Positions 1-59,981 of a DNA stretch of 64,000 nt are shown here, piece by piece. The translations under genes and the position numbers were made by a program. Source of the DNA: Eubacteriales bacterium. GTDB lineage: Bacteria; Bacillota; Clostridia; Oscillospirales; CAG-272. Positions within the stretch are counted from its first letter, which is position 1. Every line of letters starts with the position of its first letter. The stretch covers positions 1,343 through 65,342 of the forward strand of contig JAZRIJ010000083.1 in assembly GCA_045645205.1 (NCBI GenBank), given 5' to 3'. Under the pieces are notes generated by a model. The model did no database searches and was not told the origin of the DNA. It was given only the letters and a program-made list of their open reading frames with translations.

Positions 1-147
1 TGACAGTTTGTCCGGTAGTTTTGGATACTAATACATATATGATTGCGAAAATTTCTTCCTTATTATATATAGTGCCGCTTAACTCTATATAAGAAAACAT
101 TTTTGCACGATATTATAACTCAATAAATATTTTACAGGTATTATTAA

Positions 148-648
148 ATGACACAAACACAAGAATTTGTTAAACCTACAGAAAAAATAAAGGAACAGCC
201 CTTGAAAGTATGCTTTGTCTGCACAGGTAACACCTGCCGCAGTCCAATGGCTATGGCCGCACTTAATGCTTACGGTAAAGGAAAATATATTGCAGAATCA
301 GCAGGGATTATGGCAGACAATGGCGCTCCCATTAACACCAAAGCAAAGGAAGCTTTGGCTAAAGCAGGAATTGAATCCACCTACGAAAACAACTACGATG
401 CTCACATTGCCCGACAGTTAAACATGGGCATTATGGAATCAGCGAACAAAATAGTTGCCGTCGGAACAGGCCACGCCATGATGATCATTCAGGCTTTCCC
501 GCTTTGTGCCTCTAAGGTCACGTCCTTTAAACAAAGCATAACCGACCCCTTTGGTCAATCCCAAGAAGTATACGACAAGTGTTTGTCTGAAATAATTGAT
601 CAAATAAAGGCTATGTTTGCATTGCCCGACGGTGATCAAAATGGATAA
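148..648 (+). CDS. low-molecular-weight protein phosphatase (Tyr/Arg phosphatase family)
   Basis: 166-aa ORF. The N-terminal P-loop VCFVCTGNTCRSPMA is the C-X5-R-S signature of the LMW-PTP fold. The stop overlaps the next start (ATGGATAA). Confidence 0.75.
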   Translation: MTQTQEFVKPTEKIKEQPLKVCFVCTGNTCRSPMAMAALNAYGKGKYIAESAGIMADNGAPINTKAKEALAKAGIESTYENNYDAHIARQLNMGIMESANKIVAVGTGHAMMIIQAFPLCASKVTSFKQSITDPFGQSQEVYDKCLSEIIDQIKAMFALPDGDQNG

Positions 649-1087
649 GCTTATCATTTTACCTACTGAACAATCGCACCTTGACAAAATTTTCGAAATT
701 GAAGCTATATGTTTTTCTTCTCCATGGTCCAAAAAAAGCTTTGCTGACGGCATGGCAAATAAGGATATACAGAGCTATTTTACGGCATTGTATAACGGAG
801 AGGTCGTCGGATATATATGTTTATTTCATTTATTTGAGGAAAGCGAGTTGCTTAATATTGCAGTCAGTCCCAACTACCGAAAGCTTAGAATAGGACAAAG
901 CTTAATAGACTTTATGTTTAATTACTTAAAAACAAAAAATATAAGCCGAGTTACACTTGAAGTAAGGGAGTCAAACGTACCGGCAAAAAATCTTTATATA
1001 AAAAACGGCTTTACCCCAATCAGAATACGAAAAAATTACTATACATCCCCAATTGAAAATGGGATAGTTATGGAAAAACATCTTTAA
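641..1087 (+). CDS. rimI: ribosomal-protein-alanine N-acetyltransferase (GNAT)
   Basis: GNAT fold motifs (LLNIAVSPNYRKLRIGQSLI) and position directly upstream of tsaD. I moved the start to the ATG at 641, which overlaps the upstream stop, rather than the track start at 617. Confidence 0.8.
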   Translation: MDKLIILPTEQSHLDKIFEIEAICFSSPWSKKSFADGMANKDIQSYFTALYNGEVVGYICLFHLFEESELLNIAVSPNYRKLRIGQSLIDFMFNYLKTKNISRVTLEVRESNVPAKNLYIKNGFTPIRIRKNYYTSPIENGIVMEKHL

Positions 1088-1111
1088 ACCAGACTTGAAA
1101 GGATAACTTAA

Positions 1112-2119
1112 ATGCTGATTTTAGCCATAGAAAGCTCATGTGATGAAACAGCAGCTTCAGTTGCATACATCGACCAAGCAACCCAAAATATTGAAATAAA
1201 ATCCTCAATAATTGCAAGTCAAATAAACATACACGCCCTTTACGGAGGAGTCGTTCCTGAAATTGCAAGCAGAGCGCACGCAGAAGCTCTGTCGAAAATA
1301 ACCTATGAAGCACTTGACAAATCAAATACTACGTTAAAAGATATTGACGCCGTTGCTGTCAGCTATGCCCCCGGACTTATTGGCGCCCTTCTTACGGGAG
1401 TTAACTTTGCAAAAGGACTTGCTTTTGCAAACAACAAGCCTCTGATTCCCGTAAATCATATTAAGGGACATATTGCCGCATCATATATTGAAAACAATAT
1501 AAAACCTCCATTCTTGGCGCTTGCCGCATCTGGAGGACATACATCAATTATAAATGTAAAAAGCTACACCGATTACGAAACAATCGGCAGAACAAGAGAT
1601 GATGCTGTCGGTGAATGTTTTGATAAAATTGCGCGAGTCATGGGCATACCCTACCCAGGCGGCGCAGAAATGGACAGACTCGCATCTGTCGGAAATAAAG
1701 AAGCAATAAAATTCCCTTCAGCAGCAGTTTCTGGCGAAAACCTTGATTATTCGTTCAGCGGCTTGAAGACAGCAGCAATAAACTATTTACACAATGCCGA
1801 ACAAAAAAATGAAAAAATATGTAAAGAAGATGTTGCAGCCTCGCTGACCAAAACAATAGTTGACTCTATCATAATAAAGATAGGCGCGGCTATTGAACAC
1901 TATGGTTATTCTACGGTTGTATTAGCAGGCGGAGTTGCAGCAAACTCACACTTAAGAGAAGGTCTAAAAAAGTTTGCCGAAAATAAAAATTTAACCATTG
2001 CCATACCCTCACTGAAGTATTGCGGAGATAACGCCGCTATGATTGCTGTTCAAGCATATTATGAATTTCTTGAAGGGAATATTGCCAAAACGGACCTTAA
2101 TGCAGTTGCGCGTCCGTAA
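1112..2119 (+). CDS. tsaD: tRNA N6-adenosine threonylcarbamoyltransferase TsaD (Kae1/Gcp family)
   Basis: 335 aa. MLILAIESSCDETAASV start, VNHIKGHI metal-binding motif and a GGVAANSHLR C-terminal block typical of TsaD. Confidence 0.95.
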   Translation: MLILAIESSCDETAASVAYIDQATQNIEIKSSIIASQINIHALYGGVVPEIASRAHAEALSKITYEALDKSNTTLKDIDAVAVSYAPGLIGALLTGVNFAKGLAFANNKPLIPVNHIKGHIAASYIENNIKPPFLALAASGGHTSIINVKSYTDYETIGRTRDDAVGECFDKIARVMGIPYPGGAEMDRLASVGNKEAIKFPSAAVSGENLDYSFSGLKTAAINYLHNAEQKNEKICKEDVAASLTKTIVDSIIIKIGAAIEHYGYSTVVLAGGVAANSHLREGLKKFAENKNLTIAIPSLKYCGDNAAMIAVQAYYEFLEGNIAKTDLNAVARP

Positions 2120-2138
2120 GTTTTTTATCAACATTAAG

Positions 2139-2277
2139 GTTTTCCACACCTGTGGAAAACTTTGTTAGTAAACTTTTTGTGAACCCATTTTTTCCTTTAT
2201 AATCGCTAAAACTTAGGGAGAAATGTGGAAAAACCTGTTAGTTTTGTGGAAAAGTTACACTCAGTCCATGTGGAAAA
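2139..2277. promoter_or_regulatory. extra-origin DnaA-box cluster (five exact TTTTCCACA/TGTGGAAAA 9-mers)
   Basis: Boxes lie at 2140-2148 (TTTTCCACA) and at 2151-2159, 2224-2232, 2245-2253 and 2269-2277 (TGTGGAAAA). The first two form the perfect palindrome GTTTTCCACA-CC-TGTGGAAAAC. The same 9-mer is used in the oriC of this window. Confidence 0.6.
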
Positions 2278-2302
2278 CTTAAATTTTTTTATTAGACGGT
2301 GA

Positions 2303-2944
2303 TTGTTTGTGAACAATGAAAAAGGTAAGAGACCAACAAAAAAGAATATGGAATACATCTGTATCTCAAAATCTACTATTTTAAGACTCCCCTACTACTT
2401 GCGCACCCTGCGCGGTCTTCTTGAGTCTAACGTATTTAGAATTTCTTCAACCAGACTGGCTAAAATGATGAACCTTACAGCCTCGCAGATCAGACAGGAC
2501 TTGTCAGCCTTCGGCGCATTTGGACTTAAAGGCTATGGCTATGATGTCAAAACCCTTTATACTTCAATTCTTGATATTGCGGGGGTAAGAGACGAATATT
2601 CGGCTGTTATTCTCGGTACAAAAGAAATGATAACAATGCTGACATCACGTCCTGTGTTTACGAGACAGGGAGTTGCGCTCAAAAAAATATTTGAAGTAAC
2701 AAATATAGATGCGCTTGAAAAATTTAGAGATTATTGCAAAACACATTCCGTTGATATTATTGTGTTGGCAACAGAAAGCTGCATTACAAAAAAAGCTGTG
2801 GAGACTATAAAAGAGCTTAATATTAAGGGAGTTTGGAATTTTTCCGATGTAAATCTTGACCTTAATATACCGGTTAAAAATATTTGGATAGATGATTCTC
2901 TTATGACACTCTGCTTTGAAATAAGCAGAAAAAATCAAGAATAA
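2303..2944 (+). CDS. Rex-family (redox-sensing repressor-like) protein with a degenerate NAD(H)-binding motif
   Basis: The N-terminal winged helix matches Rex (ISKSTILRLPYYLRTLRGL, ASQIRQDLSAFGAFGLKGYGYDV). In place of the Rossmann G-x-G-x-x-G it has AVILGTKEMITMLTS. The true start may be the GTG at 2309, 6 nt after GGTGA. Confidence 0.7.
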   Translation: MFVNNEKGKRPTKKNMEYICISKSTILRLPYYLRTLRGLLESNVFRISSTRLAKMMNLTASQIRQDLSAFGAFGLKGYGYDVKTLYTSILDIAGVRDEYSAVILGTKEMITMLTSRPVFTRQGVALKKIFEVTNIDALEKFRDYCKTHSVDIIVLATESCITKKAVETIKELNIKGVWNFSDVNLDLNIPVKNIWIDDSLMTLCFEISRKNQE

Positions 2945-2959
2945 AATAAGGATAGATTT

Positions 2960-3937
2960 ATGAAGTTTAAATTTGTAAACACAAACGGACTAATAACCCT
3001 TCCTAAAGTGCCCTTGCTGAACAAAATCGAAAATGCTTCGGAAACCGAAATAAAGGTTTTGATATATGCATCGGCAACAGCAGAAAACGGGACGTTTGAT
3101 GAAAAGTCAATACAAAAGCTGTCCGGACTTGACTTGACAGAAATTATAATTGCTCTCCAATTCTGGCGCGGAGCTGAGGTTTTGGAATTGGTTGATGAAA
3201 ACAAAAATGTAAATGCCTCGTCTAAAACTGATCGAAAACCTTCTAAGGCTTTGCAAAAAAATGACATTCCGACTTATTCGGGCGAAGAAATTGAAAGAAT
3301 TTTTGAAAACAATGCCGAAATAACATTGCTTATTGATGAATGTCAAGAATTGGCAGGGAAAATATTTAATCCTCTTGAAATAAATAAAATTGTTTCCTTG
3401 TACGATTACTTGGGATTGTCAAGCGAATATATTCTTTCAATCTACGACTATTGCAAAAAGAATAACAAAACTACCGTTCATTATATAGAAAAAACAGCCT
3501 TCAACCTCTACAACGAAGGAATTGATACCGATGAAAAGCTTCGCGAATATTTAAAAGATAAAGAAATAATACACAGCTTTGAGGGAAAAATTCGACGTAT
3601 TTTCGGGTTAGGAAGCAGAGCACTGTCTAAAAAAGAAGCAGATATTGTTAAAAAATGGATAAAGGAGTTTAATTTCCCCCTTGAAGTTATTGAGTATGCA
3701 TACGAGCTGACAGTCAATGCTACCAGCCGCCCGTCACTTCCTTACGCAAATAAAATAATGTTAAAATGGTTCAACGCAGGCTATACCACCTTAGAAGAAG
3801 TGAAAAATGACAAGTTTGATTTTAAAAAGAAAAAAGAAGGAAATCCTCCCGCAGAATCAAGCTTTGATAATGATGAATTCTTTGAAGCTGCTCTGAAGCG
3901 AAGCTACGATAATATAGGTAAGAAGAGCACCAATTAA
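2960..3937 (+). CDS. DnaD-domain replication initiation/helicase-loading accessory protein (DnaD / B. subtilis DnaB-like)
   Basis: 325 aa with two DnaD-type C-terminal repeats (LSSEYILSIYDYCKKNNKTTVHYIEKTAFNLYNEGI and EVIEYAYELTVNATSRPSLPYANKIMLKWFNAGY). It sits directly upstream of the loader ATPase. Confidence 0.7.
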   Translation: MKFKFVNTNGLITLPKVPLLNKIENASETEIKVLIYASATAENGTFDEKSIQKLSGLDLTEIIIALQFWRGAEVLELVDENKNVNASSKTDRKPSKALQKNDIPTYSGEEIERIFENNAEITLLIDECQELAGKIFNPLEINKIVSLYDYLGLSSEYILSIYDYCKKNNKTTVHYIEKTAFNLYNEGIDTDEKLREYLKDKEIIHSFEGKIRRIFGLGSRALSKKEADIVKKWIKEFNFPLEVIEYAYELTVNATSRPSLPYANKIMLKWFNAGYTTLEEVKNDKFDFKKKKEGNPPAESSFDNDEFFEAALKRSYDNIGKKSTN

Positions 3938-3981
3938 TAATAAAACTTCTAACAAAAAAACAATAGTAAAGAGGTATAAAA

Positions 3982-4947
3982 ATGGCATATAACCGTGAAA
4001 ATTTTGTCAGACTAAAAAACGAATATGAGACAAAAAAGCGTAATGCTGTTTCTGATGCAGAAACGAGAACTGCAGTAATACACGCAAAATATCCCGAAAT
4101 AAAAGAAATTGATAATGAGCTTCGGGCAACAGGCATAAATATTATGCGCGAAGCTATGAATGGCAAAGACGGCCTTGAAAAAAGACTTAAAGCTATTGAA
4201 GAAAGAAATGCCGAGCTTCAGAAAAAAAGAATATATATCCTTGAAAAATACGGACTTCCTGCCGACTGCACCGATATTAAGTACGAATGTACAAAATGTA
4301 TGGATACGGGGTATATTGGAATTGAAATGTGCAGTTGCTTTAAAGCGGCGTTAGCAAAAAGCGCATTTGAAAGCTCAGGGCTAGGATCACTTCTCAAAGA
4401 GCAATCGTTTGAAAGCTTTGATCTGTCTTTTTATCTTGAAAACAAACAGAATTACGAAAAAATGCAAAAGTCTCTCGAAATATGCAAGAGGTACGCAAAC
4501 CTCTTTGACAAAAATTCGGGAAGTCTTATACTTATGGGCGCAACAGGACTTGGAAAAACGCATATCTCAACATCAATAGCAAAAGTAGTTATAGAAAAAG
4601 GTTATGATGTTGTATACGACTCCGCCCCCAACATTTTTAATGACTTCAACAAAGAACAATTTAAAGACCAATCGGGACTTACTAATAAATATTTTGACTG
4701 CGACCTGCTTATTCTTGATGACCTTGGAACCGAAATGCATACCGCGTTTACCGTTTCATGTCTCTATAACCTTGTAAATACGCGACTCAATTCAGGTAAA
4801 AGTACCATAATCAATACTAATCTTAACTTTGATGAGTTACGCAAGACTTACACGGACAGAATAACATCACGTATGTTCGGTTGCTTTGAACTTCTTATGT
4901 TTAGCGGTAAGGATATCAGACTGCAAAAACTGCAAAGAAATATGTAG
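3982..4947 (+). CDS. replicative helicase loader ATPase (DnaI/DnaC-type, IstB-like AAA+)
   Basis: Walker A LMGATGLGKTH, Walker B DLLILDDLGTE, and an N-terminal Cys cluster CTKCMDTGY..CSC resembling the DnaI zinc module. Confidence 0.8.
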   Translation: MAYNRENFVRLKNEYETKKRNAVSDAETRTAVIHAKYPEIKEIDNELRATGINIMREAMNGKDGLEKRLKAIEERNAELQKKRIYILEKYGLPADCTDIKYECTKCMDTGYIGIEMCSCFKAALAKSAFESSGLGSLLKEQSFESFDLSFYLENKQNYEKMQKSLEICKRYANLFDKNSGSLILMGATGLGKTHISTSIAKVVIEKGYDVVYDSAPNIFNDFNKEQFKDQSGLTNKYFDCDLLILDDLGTEMHTAFTVSCLYNLVNTRLNSGKSTIINTNLNFDELRKTYTDRITSRMFGCFELLMFSGKDIRLQKLQRNM

Positions 4948-5057
4948 TTTTACTTTCTTTGTAAAACATATTGTATTTTAAGAATAATACTGTATAATAG
5001 ATGTGGTAATTATAACTGTAAAAAATAAATTATTTATATACGAAGAGGATATTATTT

Positions 5058-6335
5058 ATGAAGTATTCTGAACTTTCAAAAATTGAATTGCTTAACCTTA
5101 AAGAACAGCTTACAGCCGAATATGAAGGACTGAGAGCCTTGGGACTTAAGCTTGATATGTCAAGAGGAAAGCCTGCACCTTCGCAGGTCGATATTTCCGA
5201 TGGTATTCTTACCGCAATCACCGACACCAAGGACACAAAAAGTGAAAGCGGCGTTGACTATCGTAATTATGGAATTCTTGAAGGTATTCCCGAAATAAGA
5301 GAAATGTTCGGTAAAGTTTTCGGAGTACCCGCAGAAAACGTTATTGCCTGCGGCAACTCCAGCCTTAACCTTATGTACGATGCATTTGCCAGAGCATACA
5401 TATTTGGTCTCCCCGGCGCTAAACTTCCTTGGGGTAAGCAGGAAAAATTAAAGTGGCTCTGCCCTGTTCCCGGGTATGACAGACACTTTGCTATATGCGA
5501 ACGCTTCGGCATAGAAATGATAAATATTGAAATGACACCTACAGGTCCCGATATGGATAAAATAGAAGAACTTGTCGCAAATGATGAAACCATCAAGGGT
5601 ATCTGGTGCGTTCCGAAATACAGTAATCCTCAGGGTATTACTTATTCTGATGAAACAGTACGCCGCCTTGCCGCTCTAAAACCCAAGGCTGACGACTTCC
5701 GTATTTTCTGGGACAATGCTTACTATGTACACCCGATTTCAAAAGATGAAAAGCTTCTCAACATCTACGAAGAGGCTCACAAAGCAAGTAATGAGGATAT
5801 ATTCTTTGAATTTTCATCTACCTCGAAAATTACATATCCCGGCGGCGGTGTATCGTTCATTTTTGCAAGCAAGAACAACATAGACTATATTAAGAAGCAA
5901 ATGACTGTTCAAACTATCAGCTTTGACAAAATAAATCAGCTTCGTCATGTTAAATTCTTTAAAACACCCGAAAATGTTATTGAACACATGGAAAAGCACG
6001 GTGCTTGTCTTAAGCCTAAATTTGACGCTGTTTGTGAAACCTTTGAAAAAGAATTTGCAGGTCTCGGTATTGCTGAATGGGTCAACCCCAACGGCGGTTA
6101 CTTTATTAGTCTTGATATTATGGACGGTTGCGCAAAACGCGCCCATGCACTTGCAAAGGATGCCGGTGTAACACTTACAAATGCAGGTGCAACATATCCA
6201 TACGGTAATGACCCCAGAGACAGAAACCTCCGTATCGCCCCATCCTATCCTACCCCCGAAGAGCTTAAAAAAGCTATCGGAGTTCTCTGTGTCTGCGTTA
6301 AACTTGCAGCAGTAGAAAAATTGCTCGAAAAATAA
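5058..6335 (+). CDS. PLP-dependent aminotransferase (class I/II fold)
   Basis: 425 aa. Includes the DMSRGKP motif, a SSTSKITYPGGG block with the likely Schiff-base lysine, and a NLRIAPSYP C-terminal motif. Confidence 0.7.
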   Translation: MKYSELSKIELLNLKEQLTAEYEGLRALGLKLDMSRGKPAPSQVDISDGILTAITDTKDTKSESGVDYRNYGILEGIPEIREMFGKVFGVPAENVIACGNSSLNLMYDAFARAYIFGLPGAKLPWGKQEKLKWLCPVPGYDRHFAICERFGIEMINIEMTPTGPDMDKIEELVANDETIKGIWCVPKYSNPQGITYSDETVRRLAALKPKADDFRIFWDNAYYVHPISKDEKLLNIYEEAHKASNEDIFFEFSSTSKITYPGGGVSFIFASKNNIDYIKKQMTVQTISFDKINQLRHVKFFKTPENVIEHMEKHGACLKPKFDAVCETFEKEFAGLGIAEWVNPNGGYFISLDIMDGCAKRAHALAKDAGVTLTNAGATYPYGNDPRDRNLRIAPSYPTPEELKKAIGVLCVCVKLAAVEKLLEK

Positions 6336-6396
6336 TAGACACAGTAACTTTTAATTATATTTGCTTAATACAGTAAGAATATATTTATAAAAAACT

Positions 6397-6443
6397 ACAC
6401 GCATTTAAAGTTAGTAAAGACCTTAAATGCGTGTAAATTTTTT
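6397..6443 (+). terminator. intrinsic terminator after the aminotransferase gene
   Basis: 12-bp stem ACACGCATTTAA / TTAAATGCGTGT followed by a T-run. Confidence 0.6.
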
Positions 6444-26009: not shown

Positions 26010-26398
26010 TTTTTATATTCCTTTCTTGTATATAGCTGTTATAATTTACTCTGTTTTGTTTTTCTGTAAAAAATCGCATAAAATATATATATAAGAGATT
26101 GTAGTAGTAATAGTAATAGTAGGTGATGTGGAAACTGTGGAAAATTTAAAACCTAAGCTTTTTAAGGGTATTATTTTCATATTTCTCCCTGTTAATATTT
26201 TTATGAAAAATAGTGGAAATTATTGTGGAATCAAAACTTTTTCAACTAATGTAGTTTTCAGAAAATAAATCAACAAGTTTTTAATGGAAAACTTTTGTGT
26301 GGAAAACTTATACATTAATTAGAAGAAACAGTAAGTAATGCTGTTTTTTCATAACAAAAGTTTTCCACATCATTTTCAACAGGTGTTGAAAAAATATG
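26010..26398. other. chromosomal replication origin oriC (dnaA-dnaN spacer)
   Basis: AT-rich tract at 26068-26100 and trios at 26102-26122. DnaA boxes: 26127-26135 TGTGGAAAC, 26136-26144 TGTGGAAAA, 26212-26220 AGTGGAAAT, 26224-26232 TGTGGAATC, 26298-26306 TGTGGAAAA and 26361-26369 TTTTCCACA. Confidence 0.8.
26102..26122. repeat. DnaA-trio-like array (TAG TAG TAA TAG TAA TAG TAG)
   Basis: Seven tandem trinucleotides of the TAG/TAA type lie between the AT-rich tract and two abutting DnaA boxes. This is the arrangement described for B. subtilis oriC. Confidence 0.6.
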
Positions 26399-27820
26399 TT
26401 ATTTCATAGATATTTCATTCATAAGCTCACTGATTTCAATTTCAAGAAGAGAGTTTTCTCTAATATCGGTTTCAATTTTATTCAGGGAAGATTTTATGGT
26501 AGAATGGTCTCTTGAAAAAATGTTACCAATTTTTTTTAATGAGAGGTCAGTCATATTCTTTATAATATATATACAAATATGTCTGACAGAAGCAATTTCT
26601 TGATTTCTCTTTGTACCTTTAAGGTCAGATTCTGAAATGCTGTATTTTTTAGTTACCTTGTCGAAAATTCTTTCTATAGTTACGTTAACAGGTTCATTCT
26701 TTGATACAACGTCGGATATACAGTCCTGCGCCAATGTTACATCAATAACTGAGCCTTTTAAAAAAGAATGGGCCGCGAGTGTCTTGACAGCGCCTTCTAT
26801 TTGGCGAATATTATTTCTAAGATTTTCGGCAAGATAGTCAAGCACATCAGGCTGAAATATTACACCCAGTTTTTTTGCTTTATGCTTTATTATAGCTGTT
26901 CTCAATTCGTAGTCCGGAGGCTGTATGTCAACTATAAGACCTCCTTCAAAACGGGTGCGGAGTCTTTCTTCAAGAGTCTTTATCTCCCTAGGAGGTCGGT
27001 CGCTTGTTAAAATAATCTGCTTTCCGGCATCATAAAGAGCGTTAAACGTATGAAAAATTTCTTCTTGAGTAGATTCTTTACCTGCAATAAACTGTATATC
27101 GTCTATAAGCAGAATATCAGTTTTGCGAAACTTGTCTCTAAATTTTTCTCTGAAGGAAACAGGAGATTTTTTACTGAGATTTTCAATAAGCTGATTTGCA
27201 AAATCTTCGCCTCGAACATAAATAATATTTGCGTACGGATTATTTTTAAGAACAAGATTATTTATAGCGTAAAGAAGATGAGTTTTACCCAGTCCGCTTT
27301 CACCGTAAATAAATAAGGGATTAAATTGTGTTGCAAGTGAGTTACAAACAGCAATACAGGCTTCATAAGCAAATTTATTTGAATTTCCCACAATAAAGTT
27401 ATCAAAAGTATATTGTGTGTGGTAGGATGGGAAAATATTACTTGCCTGTTCAAATGAATTCTCTTCAAAATCGTCATCAGACTTAATTTCTGATTCTTTG
27501 TCTGTGAGTATAGGTTCTGAAGGAAAATTTTTAATTTTTCCTTCAATATAGGGAGTCAGATCCGGTTCTCCGTTCTGTCTTGAAAGCACGGTAACATAAA
27601 CCGGATAACCAAGCAACTCTTCAAGATACTGCTTAATTGTAGGCAAGTGTTTATCTTTTATAATTTTACATTTCAAATCGCTGTTGTTTACAAGAACGGC
27701 ATCGGTGTCGTTCAAGACTTCGAGTTTAAGGTCGTTGAACCACAACTCTATAAAACCGTCGGCATAAGTTTTTCTTAAATTTTTAACAACGTTTGCCCAA
27801 AGGTCGTCTAAAAACTGCAT
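26399..27820 (-). CDS. dnaA: chromosomal replication initiator protein DnaA
   Basis: AAA+ Walker A GESGLGKTHLL, Walker B LLIDDIQF and domain IV (RNQEIASVRHICIYI, DHSTI). The start is set at MQFLDDLW (ATG ending at 27820). The 29 upstream codons in the track ORF are AT-rich promoter sequence. Confidence 0.97.
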   Translation of the reverse strand: MQFLDDLWANVVKNLRKTYADGFIELWFNDLKLEVLNDTDAVLVNNSDLKCKIIKDKHLPTIKQYLEELLGYPVYVTVLSRQNGEPDLTPYIEGKIKNFPSEPILTDKESEIKSDDDFEENSFEQASNIFPSYHTQYTFDNFIVGNSNKFAYEACIAVCNSLATQFNPLFIYGESGLGKTHLLYAINNLVLKNNPYANIIYVRGEDFANQLIENLSKKSPVSFREKFRDKFRKTDILLIDDIQFIAGKESTQEEIFHTFNALYDAGKQIILTSDRPPREIKTLEERLRTRFEGGLIVDIQPPDYELRTAIIKHKAKKLGVIFQPDVLDYLAENLRNNIRQIEGAVKTLAAHSFLKGSVIDVTLAQDCISDVVSKNEPVNVTIERIFDKVTKKYSISESDLKGTKRNQEIASVRHICIYIIKNMTDLSLKKIGNIFSRDHSTIKSSLNKIETDIRENSLLEIEISELMNEISMK

Positions 27821-27979
27821 AAAAAAATTTTTTCCCTTCTGAAAAATAAAAAATGAATAAATTGCATATATATAATTTATTATAACATATATAATTATAA
27901 TATGCAAGGCACTTTAAGTAAAATTTGTCTAACTTTTTTAAAAATTTCCATTATAATCGGCAAAAAAAAGAAAAAGCAC

Positions 27980-28008
27980 TTGACAAGTCGGGGGTTTTAT
28001 GTAATAAT
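27980..28008 (+). promoter_or_regulatory. putative sigma-A promoter of rpmH-rnpA
   Basis: TTGACA, then a 16-17 nt spacer, then TAATAAT, about 45 nt upstream of rpmH. Confidence 0.45.
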
Positions 28009-28052
28009 AAAGAATACCGTTGAGTATTTAGAAGTTGAAGGAGGTGCGTACA

Positions 28053-28187
28053 ATGATCAGAACGTATCAGCCTAAAAAACGCCAGCGCAAAAAGGAACAT
28101 GGTTTCAGAAAAAGAATGAGAACCGCCGACGGCAGAAATGTGTTGAAGAGAAGACGCGCAAAAGGCAGAAAACGGCTCACATATTAA
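28053..28187 (+). CDS. rpmH: 50S ribosomal protein L34
   Basis: 44 codons, [44 protein letters not shown], preceded by GGAGG. It is absent from the ORF track because it is under 60 aa. Confidence 0.93.
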
Positions 28188-28223
28188 TGACATAGACGTT
28201 TTTTTACATCGCATGTCAGTTAC

Positions 28224-28256
28224 AAAACCGCCGAAACTCTCGGGGGTTTTTGTTTT
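28224..28256 (+). terminator. hairpin plus T-run between rpmH and rnpA (attenuator or partial terminator)
   Basis: AAAACCGCCGA / TCGGGGGTTTT stem with one mismatch, followed by TGTTTT. Confidence 0.45.
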
Positions 28257-28300
28257 ACAACGGAAACAAAAAGAATATACAAGGGAGGTTATAAATATTT

Positions 28301-59129: not shown

Positions 59130-59981
59130 TCAGTTTTGTAAGAATAAATTTTTAAACATTTTGCACTCATTTGTTAGATCATCGTAACGATGTGTTTTCA
59201 TAATACTATGCATCCTATCTGTTTGCCATGGCTTGACTGTAACCGCTTTAAATAGGGGAAAAAATTTAAAAAATGTGGAAAAATGCCGCAAAACTGTGTT
59301 TTTGTTTTCAAATTTTTGCTCGTTGTATTTTTGGGGAAGTAACAGCTTATGCCTTGACAGCTTGTTGATGGCTGATTGATCAGGCATCAACATTTTTTTC
59401 TCTGCACAAAGCTTTTGGCATTTGGTAAAAAGTCCGGTCATTTTTATTTTTTTCATATTAAGAAGCAAAACACCCGAGTTTATATAGTCAAATTTTAAAA
59501 AATTGTTTCTGAAAAACCACTTTCCGTATCGATCAAGAACTCCTCCCAACTCATAGTTTTCAATATTTGTACCATATAATTCTTCTATGTCTTTTAAACA
59601 TACAATGTCATAATCAAGATACAGGATTTTGTCGGGTAAAATCTCAATTTTGTCTGCAAAAAGTCTTAACATACACATAGGTGTAAAGCGTGTTTCCAGA
59701 TTGGCTGTTACAGGGTTTTTTATAAACATTGCTGACACGTCGATCAGGGTAACAGAGTTATTGGTGTTATATGTTTTTGCGTATTTTTCAAGGGCTAATG
59801 CTGTGTTGTTATCTAAGGGCAGATACTTTTTTCCTTGCCATTCACAGCCCGCTGTCATAACATATATGTGAAGCTCTGTTTTTGTGTTTTGTAAAAGTGA
59901 TATGACGGACATTATAAGTCCGTCGGAAATATTTTTATCTCCGTAGTATAAAATATTTATGGCAGTATTGCCTCCTCTCAA
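59130..59981 (-). CDS. glycosyltransferase family 8 protein (start codon uncertain)
   Basis: INILYYGDKNISDGL.., LYLDYDIV (DxD) and RHFS..KPW. The track start is a TTG at 59981 immediately followed by GAGAGGAGG, so the real initiation site is unclear. Confidence 0.7.
   Translation of the reverse strand: MRGGNTAINILYYGDKNISDGLIMSVISLLQNTKTELHIYVMTAGCEWQGKKYLPLDNNTALALEKYAKTYNTNNSVTLIDVSAMFIKNPVTANLETRFTPMCMLRLFADKIEILPDKILYLDYDIVCLKDIEELYGTNIENYELGGVLDRYGKWFFRNNFLKFDYINSGVLLLNMKKIKMTGLFTKCQKLCAEKKMLMPDQSAINKLSRHKLLLPQKYNEQKFENKNTVLRHFSTFFKFFPLFKAVTVKPWQTDRMHSIMKTHRYDDLTNECKMFKNLFLQN

Follow-up and report, generated by a model that had tools for sequence, protein, structure and literature searches.

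A conserved cluster of putative DnaA boxes behind tsaD, 24 kb from oriC, in an uncultured gut member of the Clostridia

Why do five exact copies of a 9-mer found at the replication origin stand some 24 kb from that origin, between tsaD and a group of helicase-loading genes? The locus belongs to an uncultured gut bacterium of the Clostridia (Eubacteriales bacterium, CAG-272) and was analysed in a stretch of 64,000 nt (JAZRIJ010000083.1, positions 1,343-65,342), called here the window, in whose numbering positions are given unless another sequence is named. A sequence-only reading of this DNA had proposed that the copies titrate DnaA or place the helicase-loading genes under its control. The explanation that we favor, with a probability of about 70%, is that positions 2125-2277 are a non-origin DnaA-box cluster, lying 24 kb from oriC and matching the cluster DBC[gcp-ydiF] of Bacillus subtilis in its position, and that DnaA binds it cooperatively. 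The cluster adds an example to a class of elements that is already known; it does not define a new class. The case is carried by four observations: the identity of the motif with the oriC boxes, its conservation, the paralogy of one half of the cluster with an origin module, and the absence of origin features.

The density of the motif is far above its background. An exact search of the window recovered TTTTCCACA at 2140(+), 2151(-), 2224(-), 2245(-), and 2269(-), five copies within 139 bp as previously described, and outside the cluster at 26136, 26298, and 26361, in the dnaA-dnaN spacer, and at 59274. The earlier statement that the cluster and the three oriC boxes share one 9-mer was thus borne out, as was the estimate of about one or fewer chance occurrences in 64 kb. 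Dinucleotide shuffles of the window gave 0.95 +/- 0.99 copies against the nine observed, and nine or more copies were reached in none of 100 shuffles. With the stringent consensus TTWTNCACA, 15 sites were found in the 64 kb, a third of them (5/15) in the tsaD-rex cluster, and the background away from clusters was 0.09-0.2 per kb. In ten relatives, about 70 kb of DNA flanking the cluster contained no further exact TTTTCCACA. The lone copy at 59274-59282 lies in an AT-rich stretch that is apparently intergenic.

The assignment of oriC to about 26 kb is sound. The genes there are gyrB-recF-dnaN-dnaA, encoded on the minus strand, and then rnpA-yidC-jag, encoded on the plus strand, and the cumulative GC-skew minimum lies near 26 kb. 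The dnaA-dnaN spacer (oriC2, 26010-26398, minus strand), our reference for the box motif, holds a three-box module (26361-26392), a box pair (26127-26144), and a run of seven DnaA-trios, TAGTAGTAATAGTAATAGTAG (26102-26122), followed by GTGA and then by TGTGGAAAC and TGTGGAAAA, with an AT-rich stretch adjoining. From the oriC set by gene order, skew minimum, and trios, the cluster is 23.7 kb away, in agreement with the 24 kb first noted; the distance is about 18.7, 14.7, and 17.4 kb in three relatives. A box pair combined with DnaA-trios and an unwinding element is the arrangement described for B. subtilis and for oriC2 of C. difficile, where the trio is CACCTACTACTATTACTACTATGA (PMC7561715), and TTTTCCACA/TGTGGAAAA fits the DnaA-box consensus TTWTNCACA (PMC5835720). 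Since TGTGGAAAA sits beside the trios and the AT-rich stretch, it is most simply a DnaA box used at the unwinding site of this organism, and TTTTCCACA is a well-supported candidate for the DnaA box of the clade. The boxes of the origin region concentrate in the dnaA-dnaN spacer; the oriC1 region upstream of dnaA (27821-28300) is practically devoid of DnaA boxes in the window and in two related contigs (L082 and L085). Inside dnaA, near its 5' end, a sequence one mismatch away from a clostridial-type Rex site (TTGTTAA-N4-TTAACAA, 27772-27789) was considered and set aside as probably due to chance, four relatives having 4-5 mismatches there.

The initiator itself also differs from its better-known homologs. 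The DnaA of the clade keeps R399, D433, and H434 and carries P423K, T435S, and H439S (E. coli numbering), so that three of the six base-contacting residues differ from those of E. coli and B. subtilis DnaA. The P423K change in domain IV (26402-26740) does not extend beyond the closest relatives (DnaA identity of about 73% or more), and the substitutions accompany the use of TTTTCCACA/TTTTCAACA in place of TTATCCACA. Those changes fit a shifted box preference, the specificity being read here from the oriC boxes.

The genes around the cluster were assigned by domain matches, which agree with the Rex-like, DnaD-type, and DnaI-type genes of the sequence-only reading. The spacer (2120-2308) extends from the tsaD stop codon (2117-2119) to the GTG start of the rex-like gene (2309). 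On its 5' side lie a low-molecular-weight phosphatase gene, then rimI, and tsaD itself (gcp; 1112-2119, plus strand), an ORF with a Pfam TsaD match at E = 8e-92. On its 3' side, all on the plus strand, lie genes for the Rex-like regulator (2309-2944; Pfam Rex N-terminal domain), for a DnaD/DnaB-type helicase-loading co-factor (2960-3937; DnaB_2 domain), and for a DnaI/DnaC-type helicase loader ATPase (3982-4947; IstB/DnaA-ATPase domain). The GTG start of the rex-like gene was placed from the alignment of 11 sequences with a TsaD identity of 82-88% (alignment A1), and a ribosome-binding site, GGTGA, precedes it at 2298-2302. The three genes are separated by gaps of 16 and 44 bp, and no plus-strand terminator was found between rex and dnaI. 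There is no ydiF homologue at the locus, and the gene next to tsaD, the rex-like gene, is on the same strand. In the window's Rex-like protein, Pfam recognized no CoA/NAD(H)-binding Rossmann domain, and ILGTKEM stands where GxGxxG is usual; the homologue in a more distant lineage (L010, 6284-6994 of that sequence) has GAGNLG and is a canonical Rex. It may be that the window protein descends from Rex but has stopped sensing NADH. The plus-strand genes rimI-tsaD-rex-dnaD-dnaI and an aminotransferase gene (window 1-6400) lie to the left of oriC, head-on to the leftward fork, and in three relatives with both genes on the contig dnaA is on the strand opposite to tsaD. The sequencing runs that hold the locus are DNA only, a sheep gut metagenome among them.

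Within 153 bp the tsaD-rex spacer holds five exact TTWTNCACA boxes, one TTATCAACA, and two degenerate boxes. The outer box TTATCAACA (2125-2133, plus strand) has one mismatch to TTATCCACA, and its TCAACA core is present in seven of the 11 aligned sequences. Boxes 1 (2140-2148, plus strand) and 2 (2151-2159, minus strand), both exact copies of TTTTCCACA and both conserved in the alignment, form the left and right arms of a perfect palindrome, GTTTTCCACA-CC-TGTGGAAAAC (2139-2160), which was found again 20 bp past the tsaD stop and which, as an RNA hairpin, could also terminate tsaD transcription. The center of the palindrome (2149-2150) is CC or GG among the close relatives, which is what an inversion of the entire palindrome would produce. 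A degenerate box, TGTTAGTAA (2163-2171, minus strand), corresponds, by local alignment, to the third box of the oriC2 three-box module. Boxes 3 (2224-2232), 4 (2245-2253), and 5 (2269-2277), all exact, on the minus strand, and conserved in the alignment, are direct repeats 21 and 24 bp apart, the spacing given by the first reading; in four relatives (L001, L002, L005, and L009) box 4 reads TTTTCAACA. Between boxes 3 and 4 lies the second degenerate box, TGTTAGTTT (2236-2244, minus strand), with TGTTGAAAC at the equivalent place in the distant lineage L041.

Other conserved elements lie between these boxes on the plus strand. The block TTTTTGTGAAC (2174-2184) is conserved in the alignment and could be a weak -35 or a half-site for another factor; the part TTGTGAAC (2177-2184) stands out there as a conserved block as well. 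Further along are the 8-mer GGGAGAAA (2216-2223), which is invariant in the alignment and has six copies in the 64 kb, and the conserved block GTTACAC (2254-2260). A possible -10 had been pointed out at 2198-2203, and a TATAAT is indeed there, with TAnnnT in nine of 11 relatives, but a promoter could not be made of it: the nearest -35-like hexamer is TTGTGA at a spacing of 15 nt, none was found at 16-18 bp, and a consensus scan of 1900-2500 returned no sigma-70-type promoter.

A comparison of the spacer with oriC2, taken from the window and from L082 (the same contig as L009), L085, L206, and L207, suggested where half of the cluster came from. In local alignments from four genomes, the roughly 40 bp that follow the tsaD stop align with the first 40 bp of oriC2 past the dnaA stop, with scores of 34-43 against shuffle maxima of 29-38 in the aligned orientation. 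Both modules have the layout box(+)-N2-box(-)-N3-box(-)-AAAC-TTTTTG, and they differ in that the copy behind tsaD has the degenerate third box TGTTAGTAA and is followed by neither trios nor an unwinding element. By this alignment, the palindrome and degenerate third box behind tsaD are best described as a copy of the first 40 bp of oriC2. The window's own oriC2 holds the palindrome TTTTCAACA-GG-TGTTGAAAA, and the exchange of C for A that distinguishes TTTTCAACA from TTTTCCACA is also seen among the true oriC2 boxes of the window and of L082, L085, L206, and L207, including boxes adjacent to the trios. The 8-mer GGGAGAAA is also shared: it recurs at 26182-26189, directly after an TTATCAACA-type box in oriC2, in all four genomes compared for it (the window, L082, L206, and L207), and could be the site for a second factor.

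The inverted pair is found well beyond this clade. When metagenome contigs were searched for exact matches to TTTTCCACA-N2-3-TGTGGAAAA, 120 contigs (L086-L205) with a GC content of 0.24-0.71 were returned. Origin-region genes were present on 29 of the 35 contigs with enough flanking sequence, dnaA was within 1 kb on 22 of those 35, and tsaD was on none. Across that whole GC range, the pair was seen in an rnpA/rpmH-dnaA neighbourhood. Because the metagenome copies with informative flanks are mostly beside dnaA, the palindrome is a dnaA/oriC hallmark in many phyla and not a dispersed repeat, which the sequence-only reading had named as an outcome that would count against it. As an arrangement for binding the initiator, the inverted pair seems to be very widespread.

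Conservation was followed in species-representative genomes scanned with TsaD, which gave ten close relatives (82-88% identity), about 35 family-level relatives (52-67%), and 35 loci of other phyla. The ten close relatives are uncultured Oscillospiraceae/Eubacteriales MAGs, most of them labelled as ruminant gut. The order rimI-tsaD-(rex)-dnaD-dnaI is kept throughout the family. The check proposed at the outset, conservation of the cluster in related genomes, came out in its favor: the cluster is at the same positions in all ten close relatives and recurs in four distant lineages (L010, L038, L040, and L041; 55-67% TsaD identity), all of which contain rex. In the alignment of 11 sequences, the box columns are 97% identical as against 78% for the remaining spacer. 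Three of the distant lineages (L010, L038, and L040) have an inverted box pair just after tsaD, with spacers of 3, 3, and 16 nt, while L041 has tandem boxes in place of the inverted pair. Since the exact 9-mer is kept with differing spacers, it is the sequence that is conserved and not only the pairing. At the family level the distribution is patchy (4/35), and no cluster was found in the 35 loci from other phyla.

The distribution also indicates what the cluster is associated with. It was found in none of the 25 relatives in which dnaD directly follows tsaD and is missing in five of the 20 rex-containing loci, those five having short spacers. The cluster starts 6-20 bp past the tsaD stop. In L010, an isocitrate/isopropylmalate-dehydrogenase-like gene is inserted between the cluster and rex, and the cluster remains at the 3' end of tsaD. 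The cluster thus goes with the 3' end of tsaD and with rex rather than with dnaD-dnaI, and its absence in 25 rex-less relatives and in five of 20 rex-containing loci means that it is dispensable for dnaD-dnaI expression in general. The dnaD-dnaI pair directly follows tsaD in 25 family-level relatives (L012-L036, L044, and L047), with gaps of about 14-50 bp in most; with tsaD and dnaD nearly contiguous in the rex-less relatives, tsaD-dnaD-dnaI is probably co-transcribed in the family. On the other side, most contigs of the close relatives (L001-L009 and L011) end about 2.2-2.8 kb upstream of tsaD, which suggests that an assembly-breaking repeat, possibly a group of rRNA or tRNA genes, lies a short way to the left of where the window begins.

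Could the repeats be something other than a DnaA-box cluster? If the palindrome were only the intrinsic terminator of tsaD and the remaining copies were incidental, one would expect a stable hairpin close behind the gene, and this is what the RNA fold shows (20 bp past the stop codon, -17.3 kcal/mol, z = -2.8), together with a terminator-like match. In L006 and L009, TTTTCAACA/TGTTGAAAA replaces TTTTCCACA in the palindrome, and both arms have been altered together (C to A, G to T), which looks compensatory. However, the same change is found in the unpaired direct-repeat boxes, which have no pairing partner (boxes 3 and 5, or two of three, in L006; boxes 3, 4, and 5, or three of three, in L009), and those three boxes are as well conserved as the arms, so that the refuting case first envisaged, a terminator with the other boxes unconserved, does not apply. 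The arms keep the exact origin 9-mer in lineages whose TsaD identity falls as low as 55% and whose spacers differ (2, 3, and 16 nt), the same palindrome marks dnaA neighbourhoods across phyla, and the U-tract is weak, its UUUGUU tail being partly consumed when the stem is extended by pairing with the upstream AACA. We therefore find it unlikely that termination is all that the palindrome does, and a terminator role may coexist with DnaA binding. A small leader peptide (ATG 2223, MWKNLLVLWKSYTQSMWKT) whose codons include boxes 3-5, or a structured RNA leader, would account for spacings divisible by three (21 and 24 bp) and for a frame that is open in 11 of 11 sequences with an ATG, TTG, or GTG start. 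The GGAG is just 2 nt from the start codon, though, conservation is block-wise and shows no periodicity at third positions, L006 and L009 have Leu codons in place of Trp, and the stop position varies, giving predicted lengths of 19-51 aa. No Rfam match was found within 1900-2500, and the spacer has no supported RNA structure beyond the palindrome. A leader is very improbable on these grounds.

The neighboring gene suggests another candidate, the Rex-like regulator, for which the repeats would be autoregulatory operators. The Rex operator consensus is TTGTGAA-N4-TTCACAA or TTGTTAA-N4-TTAACAA, with the half-site TGTGAA, which TGTGGAA in the repeats resembles; the conserved TTGTGAAC block could be read in the same way, and the cluster is present in 15 of the 20 rex-containing loci as against 0 of the 25 rex-less ones (Fisher p = 4e-8). 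This correlation is confounded by lack of space, because the rex-less loci have almost no spacer, and in L010 the cluster precedes the dehydrogenase gene rather than rex. Neither form of the operator was found with up to 3 mismatches in 2120-2308, the half-sites of the palindrome are in the reverse order of those in a Rex operator, and the motif equals the origin boxes that lie beside DnaA-trios, all of which makes Rex a decidedly unlikely owner of the sites. A second or cryptic replication origin was also considered, as the density of exact boxes is above that of oriC2 and a copy of an oriC2 module is present. Yet 2120-2308 contains no DnaA-trio run, where oriC2 has seven trios, and no comparable AT-rich unwinding element, and the GC-skew minimum is at about 26 kb and not at 2 kb. 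With no trios and the skew minimum elsewhere, the tsaD-rex cluster was rejected as oriC, and we give the idea of a further origin there hardly any credence.

We return, then, to a non-origin cluster occupied by DnaA. The cluster consists of two sub-arrays: a nearly symmetric inverted array (2125-2171), a copy of the three-box module that opens oriC2 after dnaA, and an array of three direct boxes (2224-2277) with a degenerate box between them and the shared GGGAGAAA in front. DnaA would bind cooperatively across about 150 bp, and the array, which is replicated early after initiation, would tie up several initiator molecules. From its sequence and position we infer that the cluster is bound by DnaA, titrates it, and blocks transcription; that is, DnaA is probably sequestered there, close to oriC, and transcription kept from running into the rex-like, dnaD, and dnaI genes. 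As the cluster lies inside a probable tsaD-dnaD-dnaI unit, bound DnaA would stop RNA polymerase that has read through from tsaD or started at a weak local promoter, high free DnaA would lower the expression of the helicase loaders, and the palindrome may double as an RNA hairpin that terminates tsaD. Sequestration and transcription block could both hold together. Control of the loader genes by DnaA is plausible, but the idea of a feedback on these genes is weakened by the absence of the cluster wherever dnaD directly follows tsaD.

A wider scenario may be put forward tentatively, and we consider it more doubtful than probable. In it, a DnaA site at the 3' end of tsaD would be ancient in Firmicutes (Bacilli and Clostridia), and a copy of the oriC2 module would have been recruited here inside the tsaD-dnaD-dnaI unit, where the initiator would directly throttle the synthesis of the DnaD/DnaB-type protein and DnaI, possibly with a Rex-derived regulator lacking the NADH-binding domain and with a co-factor site at the shared GGGAGAAA. 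The occurrence of a cluster at the same position in uncultured Oscillospiraceae-type Clostridia suggests that the association with tsaD is old or has been repeatedly selected.

Among known systems, the E. coli datA locus resembles the cluster in having about five DnaA boxes outside oriC and in lowering the available initiator; the two are not homologous in position, and datA acts mainly by IHF-dependent hydrolysis of DnaA-ATP (PMC5835720). A locus of the datA type has its IHF site between essential boxes, and for the hydrolysis, a biochemical activity, the sequences of Firmicutes offer no proxy. A second parallel is with the B. subtilis genes dnaA, ywlC/tsaC, and yydA, whose repression by DnaA was shown by depletion and overproduction of DnaA (PMC2533591). 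At these promoters the box clusters overlap the promoter or the leader and DnaA is a transcription factor, as it may be here. Like tsaD, ywlC is a t6A tRNA-modification gene.

The closest match, closer than the B. subtilis analogy first drawn, is a DnaA-bound cluster directly downstream of gcp (= tsaD). Six DnaA-box clusters outside oriC bind DnaA in vivo in B. subtilis, one of them between gcp and ydiF (PMC2533591, PMC3245932). This cluster, DBC[gcp-ydiF], is highly conserved in Bacillus species with a role reported as unknown (PMC2533591, PMC3245932, PMC4447404), and it is among the strongest binders in vitro, where the apparent Kd for ATP-DnaA is 0.15 uM and ATP is markedly preferred (PMC4447404). 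Its deletion alone left the oriC/terC ratio unchanged, and deletion of all six clusters led to early initiation (PMC3245932). The cluster described here shares with it the dense boxes directly downstream of tsaD, the location outside oriC, the non-origin character, and the conservation among relatives. The neighbourhood is similar too, rex (ydiH) lying two genes away in B. subtilis. A DBC was defined by at least four closely spaced intergenic DnaA boxes (Ishikawa 2007 / Okumura 2012), as are found in the tsaD-rex spacer, with a density/affinity score A above 0.3. The score A of the cluster, computed with B. subtilis weights, is 0.14, which is below the 0.3 threshold and is the maximum of the window; the organism's own oriC2 scores only 0.03, so these weights do not transfer, and the score rises to 0.46 if TTTTCCACA is given the top weight.

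The two clusters differ in their boxes (TTTTCCACA/TTTTCAACA here, TTATCCACA in Bacillus), in their distance from oriC (24 kb as against about 640 kb in B. subtilis), and in that DnaA binding is demonstrated for the Bacillus cluster and predicted from sequence for ours. The natural TTTTCCACA/TTTTCAACA variants, together with P423K, T435S, and H439S, offer material for the evolution of initiator specificity. The surroundings differ as well: DBC[gcp-ydiF] lies between the 3' ends of convergent genes, where no promoter is involved, whereas here tsaD is followed by a gene of the same orientation, with the helicase-loader genes dnaD and dnaI behind it, so that, unlike in the convergent Bacillus spacer, a transcriptional effect is possible. 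The role of the Bacillus gcp/tsaD cluster has been unclear since 2007; the placement seen here could couple the availability of the initiator to helicase-loader expression, and such a coupling would give clusters of the gcp/tsaD type a concrete and testable function.
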